This document shows, piece by piece, positions 1,756 to 19,763 of a stretch of DNA of 20,000 bases. The first letter of the stretch is position 1. Each line of letters starts with the position of its first letter. Position numbers and translations under genes: made by a program. Source of the stretch: an uncultured virus (IMG/VR IMGVR_UViG_3300016472_001133). Lineage: Duplodnaviria > Heunggongvirae > Uroviricota > Caudoviricetes. The stretch lies in the IMG/VR virus record IMGVR_UViG_3300016472_001133. One strand, written 5' to 3'. A model generated the notes under the pieces. The model was not told where the DNA came from, did no database searches, and worked only from the letters and a program-made list of their open reading frames with translations.

Positions 1756-2745
1756 TCATTTCTTCCAGAATGAATACATGTTTTTCTCAATTTCATAATT
1801 CATCATTTTTGTTGGACGGTTCGGTTGTTCTAACGCCCATTTAAACATTTTCATAACAGTTTCTCGAAGATTTGTTTGGTCGTTAAACCCTAAGAGTTCA
1901 TGAGCTTTCGCATGGTCGCAATAAGCTGTGTGAACCTCATTCCTCTTTTCTAGATGAACTTTCGTTGCGTTAATTCCCAATTCTTTTGCTACATCGATTA
2001 CTACATCTGCAGCTTCATTGATCGTATAATATTTGTCTGCACCAATATTAAAAATTTCTCCGTCATGAGACATCATAAGCTTCTCGAAAGGTTCCATATA
2101 AAACTTAATATCAGAGAATGCTCTAACTTGTGTTCCGTCACCAAAGATAGACAGAGGTTCATTGTTCATGGCTTTACGAATCCAAATGCCTATGACGTTT
2201 CTATATCGATCCCAAATGTTTTGATAAATGCCAACGACATTATGTGGTCGAACAATACTGTATTTTAGACCAAACATTTCATGAGCAAGCTTCAAATCCA
2301 TTTCAACTGCATACTTTGCAATTCCGTATGGGTCTTCTGGCGTTGGTAATTGATCTTCTGTAAATGGAGGCTTTCCTACGCCGTAGACGGCCATTGATGA
2401 AGTAAAAATAACTTTCTTAACATTGTTATTAACACACGCGTTAATAATATTTGCAGAAGAAAGAACATTATTCGTGTAATTGTAATTTCTAATAAATGGA
2501 CTTAATCCTTCTGCTGCATATGCTGCAAAATGAAAAACATAATCGGGCTTTTCAGATGAAAAGATACTTTCTACTGCGTCTCTATCCCAAAGATCTTGTT
2601 CGTAAAACGTCACATCTTTATGAACTGAATCGACGTATCCTCCGCTGAGGTCGTCAATTCCTACGACCTTGTATCCTTTTTCTAAAAGGTATCTAGAGAA
2701 ATTGGCACCAAGAAGTCCTGCAACACCTGTAATTAATACTTTCAT
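1756..2745 (-). CDS. NAD-dependent nucleotide-sugar epimerase/dehydratase (extended SDR)
   Basis: TGVAGLLG Rossmann motif, HFAA, FTSSMAVYG, catalytic YGIAK (YxxxK), GDGTQVRAF. Confidence 0.9.
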   Translation of the reverse strand: MKVLITGVAGLLGANFSRYLLEKGYKVVGIDDLSGGYVDSVHKDVTFYEQDLWDRDAVESIFSSEKPDYVFHFAAYAAEGLSPFIRNYNYTNNVLSSANIINACVNNNVKKVIFTSSMAVYGVGKPPFTEDQLPTPEDPYGIAKYAVEMDLKLAHEMFGLKYSIVRPHNVVGIYQNIWDRYRNVIGIWIRKAMNNEPLSIFGDGTQVRAFSDIKFYMEPFEKLMMSHDGEIFNIGADKYYTINEAADVVIDVAKELGINATKVHLEKRNEVHTAYCDHAKAHELLGFNDQTNLRETVMKMFKWALEQPNRPTKMMNYEIEKNMYSFWKK

Positions 2746-2752
2746 CTTTTCC

Positions 2753-3778
2753 TCACTTAAGTGACTCTAGAAAATCTACAACACTGTTAATTGAAAATAC
2801 ACCGCTTGACTTTAAATTATTTTCTTGTTCTAAAATTAATTCGGTTCTATCTTCAAGATTCATAGAAGAAATTAAACTAACCTTTTCCACAACGGACCCA
2901 GAACCATTTACTGTCCAACGGCTTCCTAATAATGAAGGAATTAAAAACTCTTCAGGAACAAGCGCTGGAACGTTTGAAACTATATTTTCAACGTATCTAG
3001 GAGAAGCGAATCCTCTCTGAGCATACTCTGGTTTAGTTATGTGAGTCGTACAGATAAAAGAATTTAGCCTCTTCATTGAATCATAGAAATTTAATCTAGG
3101 AGCAAACGCAACATTTGGGTGCGATTGAATCAAAGACTTTGGCGATTCACGTTCTGGAGAAACTTCTAACCAATTACCATGAACAGTCGTTTGAATACCT
3201 AAGCTTCGCAATCCCGCTGAGGGTAAAGAATAATATCTCTCAAATGCCTGAGGCCTTTCATAATTGTTGCCAACATATCCGTATTCAAAAGAAGTCGAAT
3301 TGACTGGCATTAGCTTCTTCCAGTTCGTCCAAAACATCAATCTTTCGCGTTTCCTCGTTAGATTCCTCGGTTCGAAAGCAGGATCTGCGATAATTGCTTC
3401 AGGCCACATCATTTCGTCAACATGAGAAACTTTATAATCGCAATCCCAAATCACGACAGGAATTTTCCCATGATATTTTGACAACAACGCAAATTGCCTG
3501 TCAAGATCTGGCTCAAATTTATCAGGTCCAGAATTTTTATACGTTTTCCAGCGCCATTCAACGAATAGGATATCTAAATCAGGAAATCCATCATCATATT
3601 TCAATCCTGGATATGGTGTTGCTTCTCGTTGTTGTTGGAGCGCATATACATCATGACCTCTATCAATCAAAGTATCGACCATGATGGGCCGACCATAACG
3701 ATGACCATCCGGCGTTTTGGCCTCTTTTGATGATTCAAATGACTCACAAAATCCCCAATAACTGATTCCTATTTTCAT
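2753..3778 (-). CDS. Putative GT-B glycosyltransferase, possibly DNA-base modifying (beta-glucosyltransferase-like)
   Basis: N-terminal MKIGISYWG strand, RGHDVYAL, YVGN and C-terminal SPRYVE...PALVPEEF resemble GT-B donor-binding segments. Lies between a nucleotide kinase and an NDP-sugar epimerase. Confidence 0.6.
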   Translation of the reverse strand: MKIGISYWGFCESFESSKEAKTPDGHRYGRPIMVDTLIDRGHDVYALQQQREATPYPGLKYDDGFPDLDILFVEWRWKTYKNSGPDKFEPDLDRQFALLSKYHGKIPVVIWDCDYKVSHVDEMMWPEAIIADPAFEPRNLTRKRERLMFWTNWKKLMPVNSTSFEYGYVGNNYERPQAFERYYSLPSAGLRSLGIQTTVHGNWLEVSPERESPKSLIQSHPNVAFAPRLNFYDSMKRLNSFICTTHITKPEYAQRGFASPRYVENIVSNVPALVPEEFLIPSLLGSRWTVNGSGSVVEKVSLISSMNLEDRTELILEQENNLKSSGVFSINSVVDFLESLK

Positions 3779-3779
3779 A

Positions 3780-4304
3780 CTATCCTTTTTTGTTAATAAA
3801 TTCTAGAATGGTTTTCATTTCCCAATCAAGGTCTTCAGAATCAACACATAGATGCAAAGTTTTGCATCTAGTCCATTTTATAAAATCTGCATATTTGTCA
3901 GAGATTATTTGCATTTGACGAGAATCAATGTCATGCATGTCGTCATGAAAACCCTCATATGAAGTTCTATAAGGAACAATGATTTTTACTCCAATTGATG
4001 CAGCCAAAGAATCAATGTAATTTAAAGCTTCAATATCAGTTTGACGACCATACACTTCAGAATAAACCCATTCAGATGGATAAGATCTATCTAAAATCGT
4101 TGAAGTCCCAGTCTTTTTTAGAAAATTATAAAAATACGGATCTCCATATCGTAAAGCATTTTTAAAATATGAAGGATCATTTGAAAAAGCATTCCATTCA
4201 GATTCGTTCTTAAAGTAAGGAATGTTTAATCTTCGTGATAACTCTTTGGCCATTTCGGTCTTGCCGACCTTATCTGACCCATCAAATAAAATGACCATGC
4301 TCAT
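3780..4304 (-). CDS. dNMP kinase (thymidylate-kinase-like P-loop protein)
   Basis: FDGSDKVGKT P-loop and ILDRSYPSEWVY (DR motif). Confidence 0.8.
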   Translation of the reverse strand: MSMVILFDGSDKVGKTEMAKELSRRLNIPYFKNESEWNAFSNDPSYFKNALRYGDPYFYNFLKKTGTSTILDRSYPSEWVYSEVYGRQTDIEALNYIDSLAASIGVKIIVPYRTSYEGFHDDMHDIDSRQMQIISDKYADFIKWTRCKTLHLCVDSEDLDWEMKTILEFINKKG

Positions 4305-4313
4305 AATGGTACC

Positions 4314-7300
4314 TCATGAATCCAATACTTTAACCTTACTCATAAAAGTTTTATTACCGTATCCATCGACTGTGATTTCAGAAAGACAAACGCTGTACTT
4401 GGGAATTTCTCTAATACCATCCCACCCCCAACAGAACAATCTATGATTTTGACCTCCAATACCCGTAATCGTTAAAAGCAAATAGTTTTTCCCTGTTTTT
4501 GTCTTTTTGGGTTTTGCGTCAGAAACAATAAACCAGTAAATGTCACTACCTGAAAGATCATCAACTGATTTGACACCTCTGGATTCCAACTTCTTTAGGA
4601 TATCATCAGGCATTAACATGGCTGCATTAAATGAACCAAGGTATTTAATGCTATTATCGACAATCTCACCGCGAGTCCACTCAGGTTCATCCTTAGATTC
4701 GATCAGGAGATTACGAAATGCTTCCATTCCAACGAGAGGGTTCTTTTTGGTATGCTTCTTGATTTCATTATTATGATCAATCAGGATTTGATACATTTGT
4801 CTATAGCTGCTAAACGTTCTATCTACGCCAACACAATCCAATGAGTCAAATGCCTTGATTCCGATCAGGGCTTCAAGAGCTCGTTTGTTGAATTTAGAAT
4901 GTTTCCACGTACCGTCCTCATTCCATAACATGTCCTCTATTGATTTGTATGGACGATTTTCCATGATCTCATCAACTGCAGCTTCCCCCACGCCCTTACA
5001 TGAAAGGAAGCTTGGCATGAATCTTTTTCCTTCGAGGATAGTCCAGCTCTTCGTTGCATAGTTGACGTCGATGTTTACGATCTTGTATCCAAGCGCTTTG
5101 ACCTCTGAGAAAGCCTTAGCACGCTTCTCATCATTTCCTGACATCGATTCAAGATAAGCACAAAGCCATTCCTCCTCAAAGTAAGTGAGGAGCCATGCAC
5201 AGTAGTAAGAATCAATTGCATAAGACACTGCGTGAGATGCGTTAAAACCGTATCCGGAGAAGAAGAGAATCTTTTCATAGAGTTCATCTGCCACTCTTTC
5301 AGGAACACCATTCTTCATCGCACCAGAAACGAAGTCTTCCTTGGCCTTCTTGGCGTCTGCTGCCGCGGCGTCTTTCTTTGAAGCAGAACGTTTCATAATG
5401 TTTCTGCGAATTGTATCCGTCTCTGCCTCAGGGAATCCTGCGACGACAGAGCAAAGTTTCATGGTTTGCTCCTGAAAAATGATGCATCCGTAAGTCGGTT
5501 CTAGCACCTTCTTGATAAGAGGATGTTGGTAATCGATCTTTTCAGGTTCGTTCTTAGCGCCAATGTAGATCTTGTCGACGTTTGCCGCAAGAGGACCTGG
5601 ACGATAGATTGAAGTTAGAGTAGCAATGTCAATGATACTACGAGGCTTTGCTTTCGTAAATAGACGCTGTGCGCCAGGTTGCGTACATTGGAACACGCCG
5701 GCAAACCTTCCTTCGTGATAAACATATTCATAGACTTTTTGATCATTTAGATCAATATTCTTCGGATCCATGTGTTTATCAAACCAAGCCTTAATGTCTT
5801 GGAACGTTGGATTTGCAATTCCTTCACGCCTTTGCAAAATTAGATAGATGCATCGTTCGATGATGCGCAAAGTTTCGAGGCCGAGTAGATCGAACTTAAT
5901 CCATCCGAACTCTTCGAGATGCTTATAATGCATGCCTTCAACCCATGGAGTCTGAGGTTCACCCTTTGCGAGAATAAGAGGCATACGTTCAGCAATGTCT
6001 TCAGACACGATAACACCGCCGGCATGGCGGCCAAGAGAACGATTCTGCTTGAAAAGAATCTCAATCGGTTCGGCGACTTCAGGATGCGATGCAACGAAGT
6101 CTTGCATCGACTTAGAATACTTCATCGCGTCTTCATAAGTCAACACAAAAAGGTTCTTGTCGACACCAGGTTTGAAGACTTCTTTCTTGACATCGTCTTC
6201 TACCGGAGCAAGAGCAGCATTGACTTCTTCGAATGGAATGTTATAAAATCTTGAAATGTCTTTGACAAGGCTCTTAAGCTTAAAGGTATTGTAGTTAGAG
6301 ATTGGAATAACATTGTTATTACCAAAATTATCACGGAGAAGTTCGATCAGCTTATCGCGGTCTCCAATATCAGAATCGATATCAGGAGCGCCCTGGCGAG
6401 AGGGATTAAGGAACCGTTCAAATGAAAGGTCATACTCAATTGGGTCAAGGTTCGTGACGCCGAGGACATAAGCAACTAGAGAACCTGCGGCCGAACCGCG
6501 CCCCGGACCAATCAGCATGTGTTCACGTGCAAGGTCCATGATTGCCTTCATCGTGAGGAAGTATCGAGAAAACTTCTTGTCTCGAATAATCTTCAGCTCA
6601 TACTTGATTCGCTCGATATACCCAGGCTTGTCATCCAGACCTCGCCAGATTAATCCTTTCTTACAAGCTTCGACGAGGGCCTTGTCTTCCGTCGACCCTT
6701 CAGGAATCACATATGAAGGAAGCTTCATCTCCTTATTGGGATGAATGTCACCTAACTCATTATGAACGATGTCATGAGTACGTTCGATGGCCTCGCGGAT
6801 TAGGTCATCATCATAGAAATCCATGCCTTCGGTTGTGGACAGATATGAATCCCAGACCTGGGTTGCGTTCTTCGGGTACAGTTCACATTTGAGATCATCC
6901 TTAGACTTTGGAAGCATATTAGGATCGAAGTTCTGATAGTTGAGCCATCCGAGCTTCTTGTAGATCTCACGTTCTTTCCAGTTATCAGGACGAGAATAAT
7001 GCGAATCGCAGGTGACGACTAGCCGATTCGACAAAGAGTTTCGTTTCGCAAATTCGATCAGCGCGCGGTTGACAAGATGTTGCGCTGGAAGTTTATTGAA
7101 CTGCAACTCCAAAGCAACGTTTTCGCGACCTACCGCATCTGCAAGCTTATCATAAGTGTTGCCCATCTCGAGCAAGACAGATTCAAATAGCGCAGCATCA
7201 TCGAGCAACTGATGCTTCAGATCATCAAACTTGATCTTTTGCAATTTGGAAAAGACGTCATAACTCAACGTGCCACCGAGACAATTGTGAACCAACATCC

Positions 7301-7400
7301 CATTTGCAAAGAAGTTATGATTATCTTCTACGGTAATATCATAGACGTCTTCGACGTAATCAAGTTCTTCGACCTCAACAACTTCTACAAAATTACTCAT
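4314..7400 (-). CDS. dnaE: DNA polymerase III alpha subunit, C-terminal part, fused to an N-terminal split-intein C-fragment
   Basis: GPGRGSAAGSLVAY, FERFLNPSR, PDIDSD, GRHAGG, KFDLLGL, GYGFNASHA and PHP TCDSHY. The first 39 aa are an IntC ending VHN/C. Confidence 0.97.
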   Translation of the reverse strand: MSNFVEVVEVEELDYVEDVYDITVEDNHNFFANGMLVHNCLGGTLSYDVFSKLQKIKFDDLKHQLLDDAALFESVLLEMGNTYDKLADAVGRENVALELQFNKLPAQHLVNRALIEFAKRNSLSNRLVVTCDSHYSRPDNWKEREIYKKLGWLNYQNFDPNMLPKSKDDLKCELYPKNATQVWDSYLSTTEGMDFYDDDLIREAIERTHDIVHNELGDIHPNKEMKLPSYVIPEGSTEDKALVEACKKGLIWRGLDDKPGYIERIKYELKIIRDKKFSRYFLTMKAIMDLAREHMLIGPGRGSAAGSLVAYVLGVTNLDPIEYDLSFERFLNPSRQGAPDIDSDIGDRDKLIELLRDNFGNNNVIPISNYNTFKLKSLVKDISRFYNIPFEEVNAALAPVEDDVKKEVFKPGVDKNLFVLTYEDAMKYSKSMQDFVASHPEVAEPIEILFKQNRSLGRHAGGVIVSEDIAERMPLILAKGEPQTPWVEGMHYKHLEEFGWIKFDLLGLETLRIIERCIYLILQRREGIANPTFQDIKAWFDKHMDPKNIDLNDQKVYEYVYHEGRFAGVFQCTQPGAQRLFTKAKPRSIIDIATLTSIYRPGPLAANVDKIYIGAKNEPEKIDYQHPLIKKVLEPTYGCIIFQEQTMKLCSVVAGFPEAETDTIRRNIMKRSASKKDAAAADAKKAKEDFVSGAMKNGVPERVADELYEKILFFSGYGFNASHAVSYAIDSYYCAWLLTYFEEEWLCAYLESMSGNDEKRAKAFSEVKALGYKIVNIDVNYATKSWTILEGKRFMPSFLSCKGVGEAAVDEIMENRPYKSIEDMLWNEDGTWKHSKFNKRALEALIGIKAFDSLDCVGVDRTFSSYRQMYQILIDHNNEIKKHTKKNPLVGMEAFRNLLIESKDEPEWTRGEIVDNSIKYLGSFNAAMLMPDDILKKLESRGVKSVDDLSGSDIYWFIVSDAKPKKTKTGKNYLLLTITGIGGQNHRLFCWGWDGIREIPKYSVCLSEITVDGYGNKTFMSKVKVLDS
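7284..7400 (-). other. Split intein C-fragment (IntC, 39 aa)
   Basis: VYDITVEDNHNFFANGMLVHN (blocks F/G), followed by the +1 Cys at 7281-7283. Confidence 0.95.
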
Positions 7401-8377
7401 GTTTTGAAAAACCTTCTAATAGATTCTATCACTTCATTTGGAGATTTGCAATAGTCAAGTTCCCAAATGACCAGAACATCCCATCCCTTAGATTTTGCAT
7501 AAGATATTTTTTGTTCATCTTTTTCTCTAATCTGCTGAACTGTTCCATGAATGAGATTTTGCTGCAAATCTTGATAAACCCTTTGGTCTGCGTGCCAATA
7601 CGTTCCATTGATTTCTACGATCTTCTTTGTTTCTTTTTTGTAAATGTCATATGCATATTTGCCCAAAAAAAGCTGTTGACAAACAGAATCATCATTTATG
7701 AGCTCATAAATTCTTTTTTCTAATTTCGAAGCATTTTTTCCATTGAGATTTTTCAAAACCTTAATGGCACCAGGTCGACATGTATCGCCTATTCTTTTTT
7801 TTGCCTCATTTATGTCATATCCTTTTTTTATCCAAAACTCAATGCACCTTGGACTAATTTCTCGTTTATATTTTTCAATTGATTTTTCAGGATCATCGGA
7901 TTTCTCTTTCCAATAATCAATTGTGTAAATTGGATTATAAGCACCTGACTTTTTTCTTTTTTCGCATGTACTTTTTTGCCAATCTAGAAGCTGAACTTTT
8001 GCAAGTTCTTTAACTTCATCTTCACTTTTATCAAGGTGTGAAAATTTTATTTTCCACCATTGCGGTTTTGAAAGATGAATATCATGAAACTCTTTTGAGT
8101 AGGGTATTATAGATGTTAGTCTTTTTGCAAAGATGTTTGTTGTAATAGTCGGAAAAACTAAAAAGCTTCTTGGTTTTTTACCGTGAAAAGTAGATTGTTG
8201 CTCACGGAGCTCGTCAAATCCAACTTCATATTCAAACAACTTGGCAAGTTGAGAAGGAGAATAACCTTCTCTATACATCTCGAGTATTTGATCTTTTGTT
8301 TTCCACGTAACTAGAAAACTTTCAAATATTCTGCTTTTTTCCTCTCCTAAAAATTTATTATACTTTTCTGCTCCCAT
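7397..8377 (-). mobile_element. Free-standing putative homing endonuclease, Vsr/DUF559-like PD-(D/E)xK C-terminal domain
   Basis: SKLEKRI...YDIY...IVEINGTYWHAD...KD..K...A...GWDVLVIWE. Sits between the intein halves, is visibly more AT-rich than dnaE, and overlaps the IntC start by ATGA. Confidence 0.85.
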
Positions 8378-8387
8378 TGTTTGTGAA

Positions 8388-8419
8388 CCTCCAAGACATA
8401 ATTATGTTTGTCTTGGAGG
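8388..8419 (-). promoter_or_regulatory. RBS-sequestering hairpin upstream of the endonuclease gene
   Basis: mRNA CCUCCAAGACA-AACAUAAUUA-UGUCUUGGAGG is a perfect 11-bp stem. Its 3' arm contains the GGAGG SD, 10 nt before ATG 8377. Confidence 0.8.
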
Positions 8420-8428
8420 ACCTAAAGC

Positions 8429-9400
8429 TTACAAAGTAAGAATTTGAATTCCTTCATGCTTTTTTAAATCTTGAGCTTCCATCCATCCCAGATTAGTAAA
8501 GACTTTGTGGTCTGGTGTCAGCGTAACACTCTTTCCATCCTTCAGTTTAATTCTCAATAATTTCGCGTTTTTTCTAGTCATTGCTGCCCAAGAAACTTTC
8601 TTGAATTCCTTAGACCCTGTTTTTTCGTCATATGAAAGAACCAAGACATCATCACCCATATTGAATCTTTCAACGACAGACAACAGGTTTTCTAGGCCTC
8701 TATTCGTTATGAGTTCTACATCTCCAGTTAAACATGCGGTTGACACCATCAAGTGACCACCTTGCGCAGCCTCCTTCAGCATCCTGTAATCAATTCGGGG
8801 GAACCTGTAGAAGCCCTCCAAATAACCCCGAGAAACCAGATGGAATAACCTCTGCAGACCAACTGAAGTTTTTGGTAGGACAACCAGATGATGCCGACGT
8901 TTAACTGGGTCGTTATACTTACCTGACTTCGTCTCATCTTCATTTTCGATCGTCAGAGAAGCTTCATCAGTTCCAAGATCCGTCGTCTCATCGTTTCCAT
9001 CAACAACAGCCGTGATAGGCGTGATGATAGATTCATCCTTGACCGGTTTCTCTTTCGATTTTTCGATATCGATCTGCCACTGTTTCAGATCGGGATGGAC
9101 ATACATCTCGCATCCAGGAATGAACTTGAAGTTCTTGCCTGATTTCCTCATTTTTTCAGCGTGAAGATATGCATGGCAGAATCCGTTCATGTGGCCATGG
9201 TCGGTTAATGCCCACGCATCCATGCCATTTTCTAAGACGTAATCGATGTGCTCTTGTGGATAATCAAGCCCATCAAATGTTGAGAATCCTGATATTATTC
9301 CGCCCGGAAAATAAATTCCGGGCGGAAATTACGAATGCGCGTGGAGGCCGACAAAACGATTTGGCCTCCGATCGCGCATTTCCTTCTTGCTGTTTGACAT
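8429..9400 (-). CDS. dnaE: DNA polymerase III alpha, N-terminal PHP part plus IntN; contains an in-frame TAA and 42-nt coding gap at 9290-9331
   Basis: Manual translation from ATG 9400, in frame with ORF 8429..9223: MSNSKKEMRDRRPNRFVGLHAHS*FPPGIYFPGGIISGFSTFDGLDYPQEHIDYVLENGMDAWALTDHG...GCE...STA/CLTG. Confidence 0.9.
8432..8734 (-). other. Split intein N-fragment (IntN, 101 aa)
   Basis: Begins CLTGDVELIT (block A), contains VTLTPDHKVFT (block B TxxH) and GW.EA.DL, and ends at a stop. Confidence 0.95.
9290..9331 (-). other. Candidate translational-bypass element (stop codon + hairpin + landing codon)
   Basis: After TCG (9334-9332): TAA T TTCCGCCCGGAA TTTATT TTCCGGGCGGAA TAATA TCA. Perfect 12-bp inverted repeat at 9298-9309/9316-9327; 42 nt and frame-preserving. 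Confidence 0.7.
9334..9380 (-). other. Stem-loop within the dnaE 5' coding region ending at the take-off codon
   Basis: mRNA AAUGCGCG-AUC-GGAGGCC-13 nt-GGCCUCC-A-CGCGCAUU gives perfect 8-bp and 7-bp helices. Confidence 0.75.
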
Positions 9401-9406
9401 ACCATG

Positions 9407-9415
9407 ATTATACCA
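9407..9415 (-). promoter_or_regulatory. Extended -10 promoter for dnaE (probably a leaderless transcript)
   Basis: TGGTATAAT (TGnTATAAT) followed by 6 nt and ATG 9400, with no SD. Confidence 0.6.
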
Positions 9416-9455
9416 TGCGAGGTTGTAAGTTTTGCACAGCAAAGATTCTAAAATG

Positions 9456-9482
9456 AAAAAGCTCCCGTTTCCGAGAGCTTTT
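9456..9482 (-). terminator. Intrinsic terminator after the actin-like gene
   Basis: mRNA AAAAGCUCUCG-GAAA-CGGGAGCUUUUU: stem, GNRA loop and U tract. Possibly bidirectional. Confidence 0.8.
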
Positions 9483-9503
9483 AGGATTAATCAACTTCGA
9501 AAG

Positions 9504-10508
9504 TCACATAATTTGTGCTGCGATTAAACACCCACGGGCAACTGCATGAAGAGGATCTGCTGCGTGACGAACTTCCTTGACTGGAAGAGGGAAACCGTTC
9601 TCTTCGAGCTTCTTTGCAAATAGATCGACAAATCCCTTGGCCTTTGATGTTCCACCGGCAACAACTACAGGTAATGCATCCTTGAACTTTGGAAGAGATT
9701 TGTGTCCGTCCATGGCTGAAGCAAGTTGTTTAGTCGTATAATCGATGAGACGATCATAGTAGGTTGAAACAGCAGCAAGAACTTGATTATCGTTTGGTTG
9801 ACCGACAGTGAAATCGCCTTGTTCCTTCTCTGCTTGAACGACTGAATCTGTCTCGCCTGTAGCAACGGCTGCCATACGATCAACCCAATCACCAGACTTC
9901 GTGGTTGAGAATGTGACGATAGGTTCGCCATTTAGCATAACGCAAACGTTGACCATGCCAGCTCCCCATGATAGTGTGACTCCGGTATAATCATCCTTTT
10001 CTAGTTCTGAGTAACAAAGTGCTTCGGCTTCGTTAATTGCTCTAGCTGAATACCCTACTTCTGAAAGGAGTTTCACAATGACATCCTCATGATATCCTAC
10101 ATCGAAGTCTTCATCTTCTTGATCAACAGGTTGCGCCGGGACGCAGAAAACAAGCTTCTCTCCGGGTTCAGGTGGTGAGCCAGCAACTTCTTTGAGAATA
10201 TATGTTAAAATTCTGCGGGCGTCTTTTTCTTTAGAAGAAACTACACCTTTATACATGGGACGCTTCGCTGAATCGTTTCTTTCCACTGCTTTTTCAATCG
10301 CGTCTTTGCCAAGTATGATGAATGAACCATCGGCGTCTTTAACGAAAACTTTTCCAGCTAATCCTTTTTCAATCATCTTTGTAGCGATGGGGGTCGTTGG
10401 TTTTATAACATAAAACGCATCTCGAAAATCTTTATATGTAACTTTTCCTTTCGTTCCTTCTTCTGCAAGAACGATGAACGATGTTCCTACATCTAATCCT
10501 TTAGCCAT
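9504..10508 (-). CDS. Actin-fold ATPase (MreB/MamK/FtsA-like superfamily)
   Basis: GLDVGTS (phosphate 1), AINEAEA (connect 1), SWGAGMVN (phosphate 2), VVAGGTS (adenosine) and AVARGCL (connect 2). AGGAG SD. Confidence 0.85.
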   Translation of the reverse strand: MAKGLDVGTSFIVLAEEGTKGKVTYKDFRDAFYVIKPTTPIATKMIEKGLAGKVFVKDADGSFIILGKDAIEKAVERNDSAKRPMYKGVVSSKEKDARRILTYILKEVAGSPPEPGEKLVFCVPAQPVDQEDEDFDVGYHEDVIVKLLSEVGYSARAINEAEALCYSELEKDDYTGVTLSWGAGMVNVCVMLNGEPIVTFSTTKSGDWVDRMAAVATGETDSVVQAEKEQGDFTVGQPNDNQVLAAVSTYYDRLIDYTTKQLASAMDGHKSLPKFKDALPVVVAGGTSKAKGFVDLFAKKLEENGFPLPVKEVRHAADPLHAVARGCLIAAQIM

Positions 10509-10534
10509 GTCTTATCTCCTAATTGAATTATATA

Positions 10535-10840
10535 CTATTTGTTTTTCTTCAACATCGCCAATTTCGAAGCAGAAGCGCTTACGTCATCATCGACGATAGT
10601 TTGGGTTCCCAAATCTTTTCCTTTTTTCTTCAAAGAATCAGTTGAAATTGTTGTGACAAATTTCTTCTCATCAATCTCTACAACTTTTCTTTGTCGAACT
10701 TCAGGTTTAAAAAATGAACCCTTCGGATCTATTCTTGGGTCACTTAAATCAGGCTTTCCAGTTATTCTACCTACAATAAAACCTAGAACAAAAGCTGTTC
10801 CATATAACAATATGTTTGTGGTAACAATGATAGATTCCAT
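10535..10840 (-). CDS. Small membrane-anchored hypothetical protein
   Basis: N-terminal hydrophobic stretch ILLYGTAFVLGFIVG followed by a charged tail. Immediately upstream of the actin-like gene. Confidence 0.65.
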   Translation of the reverse strand: MESIIVTTNILLYGTAFVLGFIVGRITGKPDLSDPRIDPKGSFFKPEVRQRKVVEIDEKKFVTTISTDSLKKKGKDLGTQTIVDDDVSASASKLAMLKKNK

Positions 10841-17749: not shown

Positions 17750-18115
17750 TCAATACCCATTTTTAATTCTGTTTACGTTAGTTTCGCCTTTTTTCATGTA
17801 TGAATCATGAAGCTCATCCAAAGTTATGCCACTAAGAATTGCAATTTCAAAAAAATAATGAAGAGCGTCGACGAGCTCTTCGACATAATGTTCTCTATCA
17901 AACTCTTTCACATCTGTTGCACGATGATCCTTTGAGTTTTTTAATGTCTGGTTAGCTTCGAAGAGCTCATGCATACATTCATGCGTAATTCCTTTAAGAA
18001 GTTTTTGACCAGACTTAGACGTTGGATCAACTGGAAATGGAGGAAAGTCTCGTTGTTGTCGCAACAACTCCATAAATTGTTTTTGTTGCTCCCACATTTC
18101 TTGTAGCTTGTCCAT
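17750..18115 (-). CDS. All-alpha NTP pyrophosphatase (dimeric dUTPase/dCTPase, MazG-like)
   Basis: E..HELFEA...EELVDALHYF acidic metal motifs and Y.KK...N..R...GY tail. Confidence 0.75.
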   Translation of the reverse strand: MDKLQEMWEQQKQFMELLRQQRDFPPFPVDPTSKSGQKLLKGITHECMHELFEANQTLKNSKDHRATDVKEFDREHYVEELVDALHYFFEIAILSGITLDELHDSYMKKGETNVNRIKNGY

Positions 18116-18189
18116 CAATATTCCTTTGTGTTTGAAGCTTTCATGATAACAATGATAGAAAACAATATCATGAATATTGCAAATTTCAT
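18115..18189 (-). CDS. Possible 24-aa hydrophobic microprotein
   Basis: MKFAIFMILFSIIVIMKASNTKEY* fills the intergenic gap, and its TGA overlaps the next ATG (TGATG). Confidence 0.4.
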   Translation of the reverse strand: MKFAIFMILFSIIVIMKASNTKEY

Positions 18190-18196
18190 CGCAGTT

Positions 18197-18460
18197 TCAA
18201 TTCTCAAAAATTAATTTAGGAACATCGGTCAAAGTTTCAGATTGAGACTTTAATTTTTCAGCATCTTCAAGGTATTTCTTATGCTGGGCTTCAACCATTT
18301 TCTCATATTCAGGATGTAAGGTTAACGTATCAGGAGATGACTCGTCGACAGTTAAACGAACCTGTCGCATTAAATCTGCGCCATCTACTCCCATTAAAAC
18401 TGCCTCTTGAAAAATTTGAATAAACCGCATCGCAACTGAATCTGAAATTTTATAGTTCAT
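18197..18460 (-). CDS. Hypothetical protein
   Basis: 87-aa ORF with GAGG SD. Confidence 0.7.
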   Translation of the reverse strand: MNYKISDSVAMRFIQIFQEAVLMGVDGADLMRQVRLTVDESSPDTLTLHPEYEKMVEAQHKKYLEDAEKLKSQSETLTDVPKLIFEN

Positions 18461-18513
18461 AACACCTCTAATTTAATAAATCATACATAAAAAAACTATT
18501 TTGTATTATAAAT

Positions 18514-19107
18514 TTAAGGTCTTTCTAAAATTCCTCTTTCATACAATACATTTCTAATTCTTTTAGAAATTACCTTTTTTTCTTGTCGGCAGTCAATAAG
18601 TGTTGTCGTTTTTGGGTTGTTTTTTGCCCATTTTGCATACTCAATTCTAACATTTTTTTGAAGTTCAGAATCTGCCTCATATGAATCTTCAGCTTCATGA
18701 ACGTGCGAATCTCCATGAAGAATAATCGTATGATCTGGTTCTCTCAACTTTCTAGCTAATTTCATGGTATACTCCAAAGGAACTCCTTCGGCAACGCCAT
18801 ACACTATAGTAGATAAACTCCATCTGTCCATGATGATACAATCATGGTTTTTTTCTAAATGAGGCAATTTAAAAACTTGAAAAATCTTTCTATTCATATA
18901 TTGAAACCATTGAAAGATTTTTGGAAATTTTTTTGCAAGACCATTTTGAAGCATCCAATAAATGATTCTGTACGTTACCGCCGATTTAATTGGTACTTCA
19001 ATAACGATCGAAGAAAATCCTCTTTCTGAAAGTTTTCTTTTCAAAAGACGAGTTTGAGTCTGTTTTCCTACACGATCTGGTCCTTCAATCACGATGATCT
19101 TGCTCAT
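18514..19107 (-). CDS. tmk: Thymidylate kinase
   Basis: IVIEGPDRVGKQTQ P-loop, IMDRWSLSTIVYG and PDHTIIL. Overlaps the thyX end. Confidence 0.85.
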   Translation of the reverse strand: MSKIIVIEGPDRVGKQTQTRLLKRKLSERGFSSIVIEVPIKSAVTYRIIYWMLQNGLAKKFPKIFQWFQYMNRKIFQVFKLPHLEKNHDCIIMDRWSLSTIVYGVAEGVPLEYTMKLARKLREPDHTIILHGDSHVHEAEDSYEADSELQKNVRIEYAKWAKNNPKTTTLIDCRQEKKVISKRIRNVLYERGILERP

Positions 19108-19763
19108 GTAAAAGGCCCTCTCAAATTTCCTTCAATCGTCAATCCAAATGCCTCCATCGTATGATTAAAAGATCCAGTCGAATGAACAAGATCTAACATC
19201 TGTTTTGCGATGTCTCTAATTTCTACTTGGGCGTGTTCTGAATATCGTAATCGAAGAAAGTGGACAAAACTACGAAAATTGAACATGACGTCGGCAGTTA
19301 TCTGATTTCCATAAGGAAGATATAATCGAGCTGATTCCTTAGCTCTCTTCCTACTCATCCCTTTTTGAACCAACCTTTCTAACGTAGAGTGATACTTTTG
19401 TAGGCTGGATTCCATATGTTCGATGTAAATCTCTTGTTCCTCTGAGTCCCAGTCAATCGGAACGTGATATTTGTCTTCCTTAAGCTCTTTATAACGAGCT
19501 GATTCAGCATTAATTGATACGCCGATACGATGCTTCAAGAGATGGATGTGAGAAGCAATGTCTGTGGTTACCAGAAAATGCAGTGAACTCTTTTCAAAAG
19601 GGGTCTCATGTGAATTTTCGGCTAACATTTTAAGTAGCTTTGGAATTCTTTCTCTTTTATCCTCAGTTAGATCTCTTGATGTTGATGTCCATGCTGAAAG
19701 TGCATGAGTTTCGTCAGAACCATAATATCCAATTAATTCAACTTTGTTAGACCTAGGAGGCAT
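19104..19763 (-). CDS. thyX: Flavin-dependent thymidylate synthase
   Basis: HETPFE, HLLKHR..SINAESARY (ThyX motif with KHR), ESARLYLP, NFRSFVHFLRLR, AQVEIR. Confidence 0.92.
   Translation of the reverse strand: MPPRSNKVELIGYYGSDETHALSAWTSTSRDLTEDKRERIPKLLKMLAENSHETPFEKSSLHFLVTTDIASHIHLLKHRIGVSINAESARYKELKEDKYHVPIDWDSEEQEIYIEHMESSLQKYHSTLERLVQKGMSRKRAKESARLYLPYGNQITADVMFNFRSFVHFLRLRYSEHAQVEIRDIAKQMLDLVHSTGSFNHTMEAFGLTIEGNLRGPFT

Follow-up and report, generated by a model that had tools for sequence, protein, structure and literature searches.

Hopping over a stop-containing gap is a rare way of reading a gene, and bypassing has been published for the T4 gene 60 family, Hau3-type terminases and yeast byps (PMC7026636; PMC10732093; PMC5009743), whose descriptions here and below follow the available parts of the cited texts. 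In gene 60, the 5' stem-loop stops 9 nt short of the take-off codon and is unconserved among the myovirus homologues (10.1101/2022.08.31.505936; 10.1101/2024.12.09.627546; PMC7026636; PMC5009743), some of which have lost MobA yet kept the bypass (10.1101/2022.08.31.505936; 10.1101/2024.12.09.627546), and the forward push is credited to pairing of the mRNA leaving the ribosome (10.1101/2024.12.09.627546). The 10-nt bypass in the terminase gene of the Streptomyces phage Hau3 was shown for a UAA variant in E. coli, using mass spectrometry (PMC10732093), and a natural in-frame hop over a stop was stated in 2016 not to be known (PMC5009743). Here we describe a cassette in phage dnaE, a DNA polymerase gene, that is predicted from sequence and consists in order of a Shine-Dalgarno (SD)-like run, a long coding helix, a Ser codon, a stop, a short gap and a Ser-like triplet, and in which the helix probably helps ribosomes to hop the gap while the gap probably shields the gene from a selfish nuclease that would spread the cassette.

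The window, the whole 20,000-nt stretch that was analysed, is part of a 74-kb virus record, and the sequencing runs holding it are mostly freshwater. On its minus strand, an ATG at 9400 opens ORF1, whose 23 codons end in HAHS and are followed by UAA; the frame picks up at UCA with GFSTFDG, 42 nt past the Ser codon UCG. The gap is in frame, and 9400-8429 (-) is a single frame with one TAA within. The features, in the order of reading, are:

9457..9482, minus strand, terminator-like hairpin closing the upstream volactin-type actin gene and separating that gene from dnaE
9407..9437, minus strand, promoter-like motif recognised from the sequence: GTGCAAA at 9437-9431 and TATAAT at 9412-9407, 6 nt ahead of the ATG
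9332..9400, minus strand, dnaE ORF1, 23 codons (MSNSKKEMRDRRPNRFVGLHAHS), first HxH motif of the PHP domain, from the sequence and the L020 alignment
9381..9385, minus strand, SD-like AAGGA inside ORF1, directly 5' of the helix (-4.8 kcal/mol)
9373..9380, minus strand, 5' arm of the outer stem (8 bp)
9363..9369, minus strand, 5' arm of the inner stem (7 bp)
9343..9349, minus strand, 3' arm of the inner stem
9334..9341, minus strand, 3' arm of the outer stem, its last base being the first base of the take-off codon
9332..9334, minus strand, predicted take-off codon UCG (Ser)
9329..9331, minus strand, UAA stop
9298..9327, minus strand, 12-bp hairpin within the gap, starting 1 nt past the stop
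9293..9301, minus strand, GGA and six A/U bases ahead of the landing codon, from the sequence
9290..9292, minus strand, predicted landing codon UCA (Ser), 42 nt past take-off, after which GGA resumes GFSTFDG
8429..9289, minus strand, dnaE ORF2: remaining PHP domain and N-half of a split intein
7397..8377, minus strand, free-standing DUF559/Vsr-like endonuclease between the intein halves, a separate element in the fractured-gene layout
4314..7400, minus strand, intein C-half and catalytic part of DnaE

In the gapless homologue L020, HSHSGFSTFDG aligned without a gap to HQHTQFSLLDG of a solved DnaE; a PDB search with the window protein, its stop read as X, gave no match, whereas the gapless homologue did match. 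A recoded genetic code was ruled out, since TAA is a used stop in the window genome, closing 25 of 90 long ORFs, and the 74-kb contig holds no tRNA genes. The hairpin within the gap is the longest perfect inverted repeat of that contig (loop up to 20). Its 6-nt loop (9310-9315) occurs in both orientations among isolates, a micro-inversion, and the reverse-complemented loop of L002 and run X5 gives a second in-frame stop. The GGA at 9301-9299 has the spacing of the gene 60 mini-SD and, at three bases only, is weak. Other stable folds before stops are listed among the ORF ends of the 74-kb contig.

The surroundings of the gene were as follows. Upstream, 9504-10508 was assigned to Volactin (Pfam, E 7e-66), and within 9504-10840 a small ORF whose N-terminus is hydrophobic lies ahead of this volactin-type actin gene. 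The dnaE transcript is predicted from the promoter-like motif to be leaderless or near-leaderless; a like motif stands at the matching place in eight aligned loci, and a sigma-70 scan did not detect the one at 9407..9437. ORFs around dnaE at 1756-4304 and 17750-19763 are presumably nucleotide/sugar enzymes (epimerase-like, kinase-like, MazG-like and ThyX-like). Since dnaE (4314-9289) is also fractured by the split intein, the gene would need a hop and trans-splicing. The intein, its Vsr-like endonuclease and the hairpin ahead of it give this dnaE the layout of fractured genes (PMC2677866), and they are a separate element 800 nt downstream of the gap; in the available part of the fractured-gene paper, bypassing comes up solely as an alternative that is rejected, and the gap is not described (PMC2677866). 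An 11-bp hairpin at 8388-8419 lies ahead of the DUF559/Vsr-like endonuclease gene, a layout already known.

The original prediction placed two stems in ORF1, and both were found exactly as claimed. The outer stem (8 bp) pairs 9380-9373 (AAUGCGCG) with 9341-9334 (CGCGCAUU), and the inner stem (7 bp) pairs 9369-9363 (GGAGGCC) with 9349-9343 (GGCCUCC), all on the minus strand, the last paired base, 9334, being the U of UCG. The helix comprises 15 Watson-Crick pairs (11 G-C and 4 A-U) with a 13-nt terminal loop, and its 3x1 internal loop makes it two stacked stems, not a single 15-bp run. ORF1 (23 codons) had a minimum free energy of -26.1 kcal/mol, a stability reached by 1/2000 synonymous recodings with dnaE codon usage (z -4.2), 7/1500 GC-matched recodings (z -3.2), 6/4222 genomic 69-nt windows and, for 9330-9400, 2/200 dinucleotide shuffles. 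The codon-recoded controls (1/2000 and 7/1500) thus bear out the claim that the pairing exceeds chance; the accompanying description of the genome as AT-rich is right only in moderation, the GC content being 39% for the genome and 44% for the region. In the context of 9230-9400, pair probabilities were 0.96-1.0 for the inner 13 pairs and 0.55 and 0.81 for the two outermost. Contigs from four other studies (runs X5, X6, X8 and X9) span the stop and gap with helix and stop unchanged.

Relatives were collected by a protein search unselected for gaps, which gave 68 loci (17 with a stop-containing gap, 51 gapless), and by three gap-aimed pattern scans, which added 29, 10 and 90 matches. From 198 sequences, 153 had a DnaE motif and yielded 106 distinct alleles, 64 with a gap and 42 without; the 45 left out carry the pattern without a DnaE continuation and, among the matches listed, are unrelated DNA. 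Gaps measured after the Ser codon are 5-16, 38 or 42 nt long and fall at two sites. Sixty-one (5-16 nt) follow the Ser of S/T-G-F-S (site A), and three (42, 42 and, in L100, 38 nt), all containing a hairpin of their own, come after the Ser of HxHS (site B, the window's type). By frame, 25 of the 64 are in-frame, 17 are +1 and 22 are +2, and since gaps in three frames restore the exact gapless length by one rule, readthrough or a single frameshift would be insufficient. A stop occupies the A site in 64/64 (33 UAA, 19 UGA, 12 UAG), the pattern scans having selected for stops, and also in 17/17 gaps of the unselected protein search. Site-A alleles keep HxH, G and F ahead of the gap in 61, 61 and 60 of 61, and the frame past the gap is conserved well ahead of its first Met.

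The take-off and landing codons followed a common pattern. Wobble class was kept in 43 of 46 distinct junctions, with Y to Y in 25, R to R in 18, R to Y in 3 (all UCU) and Y to R in none, the window having UCG/UCA; tested on five phylogenetically independent pairs the match reached P = 0.06, and it also fits, in part, target-site duplication plus transitions. Landing triplets were mismatched at position 1 or 2 in 30/64 (27 ACN/GCN, 3 UUG), and L212, from the nuclease-first scan described below, has an AGU to AGU hop junction, which belongs to the other Ser tRNA. The landing codon is the first compatible triplet at an offset of at least 2 in 40/46 junctions, the exceptions being L028, L029, L143 and the three long gaps, in which the hairpin contains the rival triplets. 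Short-gap spacers contain 4 C in 188 bases. UCG UAG UCG (L073/L084) and UCG UGA UCG (L108), in which nine bases would give one amino acid, and also L125, are candidate in-frame stop hops, although each of them taken singly could also be a case of readthrough.

Gap and gapless alleles interleave on a quick tree of the downstream protein, from which the short rows L108, L129 and L181 were excluded (25 changes, at least 10 of them forced), and L017 and L023 have an identical downstream part. One 153-nt contig from an RNA-labelled library spans the gap unspliced; its depth is 3.9 and it may be DNA, and X19 and X20, which bear on this contig, look like a single data set. Among 50,697 phage records there was no close cultured relative (31 matches, all <60% identity), a pattern scan of prokaryote genomes gave 36 matches and zero relatives, and Rfam covariance models gave 0 matches at E<=1 over 8300-9600, with no group I or group II intron.

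A long helix ending 0-3 nt from the end of the take-off codon was found in 62/64 gap alleles versus 1/42 gapless alleles. The rule (an end within 3 nt of take-off) was set after the data had been seen and gave 62/64 versus 0/42; L009 fails it yet can form all 15 window-type pairs, and was counted. For the 78 nt ending at take-off in the 64 gap alleles, the median folding energy was -31.8 kcal/mol (z -3.5), compared with -11.1 kcal/mol (z +0.65) for the 78 nt ending at the equivalent site of the 42 gapless alleles, downstream GC being equal. Helix went with gap in 10/10 independent tree pairs (P = 0.002), which, since helix and gap travel as one module, represent co-inheritance and not independent origins. 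The helix had been expected to be absent from insert-less alleles, and so it was in 41/42; the case named beforehand as refuting, the same helix in a homologue without the gap, occurs once, in L009, a mosaic whose 5' part is 84% like the window and whose downstream part is 91-100% like L008. The L009 helix (-21.2 kcal/mol) differs from that of the window by one compensatory and two G-U changes, and its occurrence without a gap means that the helix is not strictly tied to the gap. Two alleles of the opposite kind, L112 and L188, have a 5-nt gap (UCG UA ACG) with neither helix nor SD, L188 retaining the nuclease C-terminus; they may be decayed alleles or helix-independent hops. The gapless L041, L046, L048 and L052 carry a shorter local hairpin (-21.7 to -24.3 kcal/mol) ending 6 nt ahead of the site; these four are closely related to the gap alleles L059/L185, and their hairpin is possibly a precursor or a remnant.

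Covariation in the stem was assessed in the 29 alleles that share the commonest register, 22 being left out, after alignment by sequence only: 33 cells changed on both sides, versus 8.5 in shuffled sets (0/500), while slid controls gave 5-12 cells. At the Gly wobble pair these 29 have UA 10, CG 8, GC 7 and UG 3; in each allele's best register the counts are GC 23, CG 12, UA 10 and UG 3 (48/49), and at the Phe wobble pair GC 33 and AU 15. Covariation of this kind in the aligned stems indicates upkeep by selection. RNAalifold applied to all 51 site-A sequences found no consensus structure because the helix registers differ. The strong covariation statistics come from the subtype with the gap three codons later (site A); for the window subtype, covariation involves two other lineages only, L009 and L100 (outer stem only), the latter, distant on the protein tree, retaining the outer stem of 8 bp while its inner stem differs. 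Between site A and site B the gap is displaced by three codons, and the helix end shifts with the take-off codon. Upstream of the helix, 62/64 have an in-frame ATG, and registers differ by multiples of 3 in 47/51, which argues that the 5' arm is translated, coding sequence. Two further claims of the original prediction were upheld by these data. That the N-terminal extension is shaped by RNA structure agrees with the allele counts (62/64 versus 1/42) and the compensatory changes, and that helix and gap are co-adapted is supported by both of these and by the helix end tracking the take-off codon; the proposed look at covariation in homologues gave the 33 both-side changes against 8.5 above. The suggested help from a basic nascent peptide did not survive: the extension sequence is unconserved, its median net charge is +2 versus +1 in gapless N-termini, and no residue is conserved beyond the DnaE motif common to gapless alleles. 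The KKE of the extension stems from the purine run AAGAAGGA.

Two features were missed by the original prediction, an upstream SD-like run and an association with a nuclease. The AAGGA of the window is weak, and the run is stronger in most relatives. Scored against the anti-SD reference motif, the 16 nt ahead of the helix paired at <=-4 kcal/mol in 62/64 gap alleles (median -9.0), compared with a median of -2.4 at control sites, 22% of 1133 of which reach the cut-off, and the run is found in each of the three codon phases. Once helices are looped out, the median distance from SD to landing triplet is 11 nt (8-13 in 39/49; window 9, L100 8). A strict SD ruler was rejected, as there is no compensation between the spacing from SD to helix and that from helix to landing (rho 0), and since the SD sits where gapless alleles have their ribosome-binding site, it may be an ancestral relic.

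The putative nuclease is encoded by an ORF of ~305 aa with a PDF...YExKG core (L010:1982-2905 is an example) that abuts dnaE in 39/64 gap versus 2/42 gapless alleles; in the set unselected for gaps, it lies upstream in 11/16 gap versus 2/42 gapless alleles. By motif it is of PD-(D/E)xK type, PHROG endonuclease families were matched, and Phage_endo_I stayed below the cut-off. In a nuclease-first search, the best 80 loci comprised 35 with dnaE next to the nuclease and 45 without a dnaE motif downstream. The 35 nuclease-dnaE loci divided into 23 with a gap (10 of them new), 2 with a +1 shift and 10 continuous; all 10 new gap alleles have the helix (z -3.7 to -6.3), which 0/10 nuclease-linked gapless alleles have. 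The Gly of S-G-F-S is changed in 9/10 of these nuclease-linked gapless alleles and kept in 37/40 nuclease-free gapless ones; judging from these alleles, gap and Gly replacement are two ways of altering one site. The window dnaE is adjoined by no PD-(D/E)xK gene, the volactin gene, terminator and promoter-like motif standing upstream instead, and in the 211-kb sister contig the nuclease profile matched only weakly and in part, at a place far from dnaE; the window has lost the nuclease gene or never had it alongside, and in this resembles the gene 60 homologues that retain the bypass after losing MobA.

Several other alleles differ at or near this site. Two nuclease-linked dnaE genes (L223:1325-1480 and L224:2247-2400) have a one-base shift without a stop at UUU C, reading HGHSTF and continuing in +1 as SLGDGIG, with AAGGAG and a small hairpin ahead of the shift, and are candidates for an SD-stimulated +1 frameshift at the same site as the gaps. 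L211, L213-L215, L218-L220 and L231 combine an altered motif (STFS) with a 9-nt gap, and their 12-bp basal stem is rewritten to match the altered codons. Among gapless dnaE genes, Pfam placed an endonuclease VII beside L033 and a GIY-YIG nuclease beside L061; L034, judged by eye, resembles L033 upstream, and its motif reads TMFS instead of SGFS.

Because the hairpin is kept almost only alongside a stop-containing gap, it most likely helps ribosomes to jump that gap. From the aligned alleles, the helix likely promotes forward movement of the ribosome, and the association with the nuclease suggests that the gap likely protects dnaE from it. In the window, a ribosome at UCG would pause with UAA in the A site, and the message behind it would refold, the basal stem zipping up and taking in the first base or bases of the take-off codon, which would pull peptidyl-tRNA(Ser) off its codon and keep it from pairing there again or sliding back. 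The tRNA would then re-pair at the first compatible unpaired triplet, here UCA, the 30-nt gap hairpin being skipped. The SD-like run, brought near once the helix loops out, may hold the ribosome at a distance of 8-13 nt from the landing codon; this is the weakest step, and we lean slightly against it. Translation would resume at GGA to give ...HAHSGFSTFDG..., as in gapless alleles. One difficulty is that, if fully zipped, the helix would stand 4-14 nt behind the landing codon and need to loop out of the mRNA channel. More tentatively, and with less than even confidence, the cassette can be read as a minimal, widespread and independently evolved bypass device in which an internal SD and a long coding helix, as zipper and ruler, would eject peptidyl-tRNA(Ser) at a stop and set the landing window without needing a nascent-peptide signal or A-site hairpin; it would include in-frame stop hops, tolerate mismatched landing and have spread through jumbo-phage dnaE by a PD-(D/E)xK homing nuclease.

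By analogy, the dnaE element is one that would work like T4 gene 60 but outside that family. Common to both are a stop past the take-off codon, a wobble-matched landing, an A/U-rich spacer, a gap free of premature landing triplets, a take-off that can shift by codons, and a place inside a conserved motif of a replication enzyme, next to a free-standing nuclease that in many cases is lost afterwards. In gene 60 these are the homing endonuclease MobA and a topoisomerase large-subunit gene; here they are a PD-(D/E)xK nuclease and dnaE, with Ser tRNAs. The gene 60 model invoked by the original prediction is apt as to the likeness of working and not as to the 5' structure, which there lies 9 nt upstream and is unconserved, whereas the dnaE helix includes the take-off codon and, at 47-70 nt, is the conserved structure and most constant element. 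The A-site or take-off stem-loop of gene 60 has no counterpart, the 61 short gaps being nearly C-free and too short; it spans the take-off codon and the 5' part of its gap, whereas the window's gap hairpin begins 1 nt past the stop. The nascent-peptide signal of gene 60 (KKYK region) has no conserved equivalent in dnaE extensions. For the gene 60 mini-SD, ~6 nt before landing, the window offers the three-base GGA, a weak candidate of fitting position; short gaps are too short for one, and a strong SD stands 5' of their helix instead. Landing in dnaE, unlike gene 60, often has a first-position mismatch.

Magnusiomyces byps have unused codons instead of a stop. They share matched codons around a hairpin insert with the 42-nt window gap and the 38-nt L100 gap and also tolerate imperfect landing, but are mitochondrial, present in many copies per genome and without SD (PMC7026636; PMC5009743; 10.1101/2022.08.31.505936). 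In layout, the dnaE element is, by comparison of their parts, nearer to the Hau3 terminase than to gene 60. Hau3 shares a short gap, a proposed 5' stem-loop with a flanking SD and a matched landing (PMC10732093), and a layout of this kind (5' stem-loop and flanking SD), by the main-text description, is present in 62/64 dnaE gap alleles. Hau3 has a hungry codon, UUA, in a terminase gene and a proposed regulatory role (PMC10732093), whereas dnaE has stops, and the text compared gives no nuclease link for Hau3 (PMC10732093), whereas the dnaE element is nuclease-linked. In T4 genes 38 and 25, looping out of the hairpin that separates the SD from the P-site codon gives a working spacing for initiation at AUG (PMC3014915), whereas the dnaE device would act on an elongating ribosome.

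Other readings of the locus were weighed against a helix-driven hop. The hop might be real and the helix serve something else, such as ribosome spacing, hiding an internal SD, limiting DnaE output or mRNA processing, which would accommodate the gapless L009 with a helix, the helix-free gaps of L112 and L188, the unconserved and perhaps dispensable 5' stem-loop of gene 60 homologues, and the fact that the window's inner 5' arm is itself GGAGG; with the helix end staying 0-3 nt from the end of the take-off codon in 62/64 and shifting with the gap, and with 0/10 nuclease-linked gapless alleles having the helix, we regard this as unlikely. The SD (present in 62/64 and, once helices are looped out, at a median distance of 11 nt from landing), the precedent of T4 genes 38 and 25 (PMC3014915) and the 13 landing triplets that are ACG or UUG could instead signify a split ribosome-binding site, from which a fresh start just past the gap would supply an ORF2 protein that assembles in trans with the ORF1 peptide. 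An in-frame ATG, GTG or TTG between stop and xDG exists in only 13/64, however, UCC, UCU, UCA and ACC are not start codons, and initiation does not predict that landing and take-off codons match, so that this reading is very improbable.

Removal of the gap from the RNA, as a tiny intron or by helix-guided cleavage and ligation, would draw on the two-base repeats flanking most gaps and on a long helix beside the junction that could guide an enzyme, but Rfam gave no match, the gaps go down to 5 nt and share no sequence, no joints across the gap were found in the 8 runs examined, and the RNA-labelled contig, weakly, keeps the gap without a joint; we consider it about equally improbable. Simple readthrough in the window, adding 14 residues, is suggested by 9400-8429 being one frame with a single TAA, yet L002 and run X5 carry a second in-frame stop in the flipped loop, 39/64 gaps are out of frame and all three stops are used, the insert would split a motif that aligns gap-free to a solved DnaE, and the 74-kb contig has no tRNA genes, which makes readthrough extremely improbable. 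Nor do we give more than the slightest credence to a dead allele, or a DnaE without its first strand, in which helix and gap would be scars of nuclease insertion (a template-switched inverted copy): gapless alleles are common (51/68) and the 5' arm repeats the target region in inverted form, but HxH, G and F persist in 61, 61 and 60 of the 61 site-A alleles, the post-gap frame is conserved well ahead of its first Met, and compensatory changes speak of upkeep.

A helix-assisted hop over a protective gap thus remains the preferred reading, and no published account of a dnaE helix-gap element was found in the literature searched, in which subscription journals were thinly covered. The force that pushes a ribosome forward off its codon is still debated, and in dnaE the 5' helix is conserved and covarying, the reverse of gene 60. 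The relatives offer dozens of natural variants, with gaps of 5 to 42 nt in all frames, each <150 nt and reporter-ready. If the reading is true, many truncated phage dnaE annotations would be intact genes, and homing nucleases would have, beside inteins and introns, a third way to shield the host gene.
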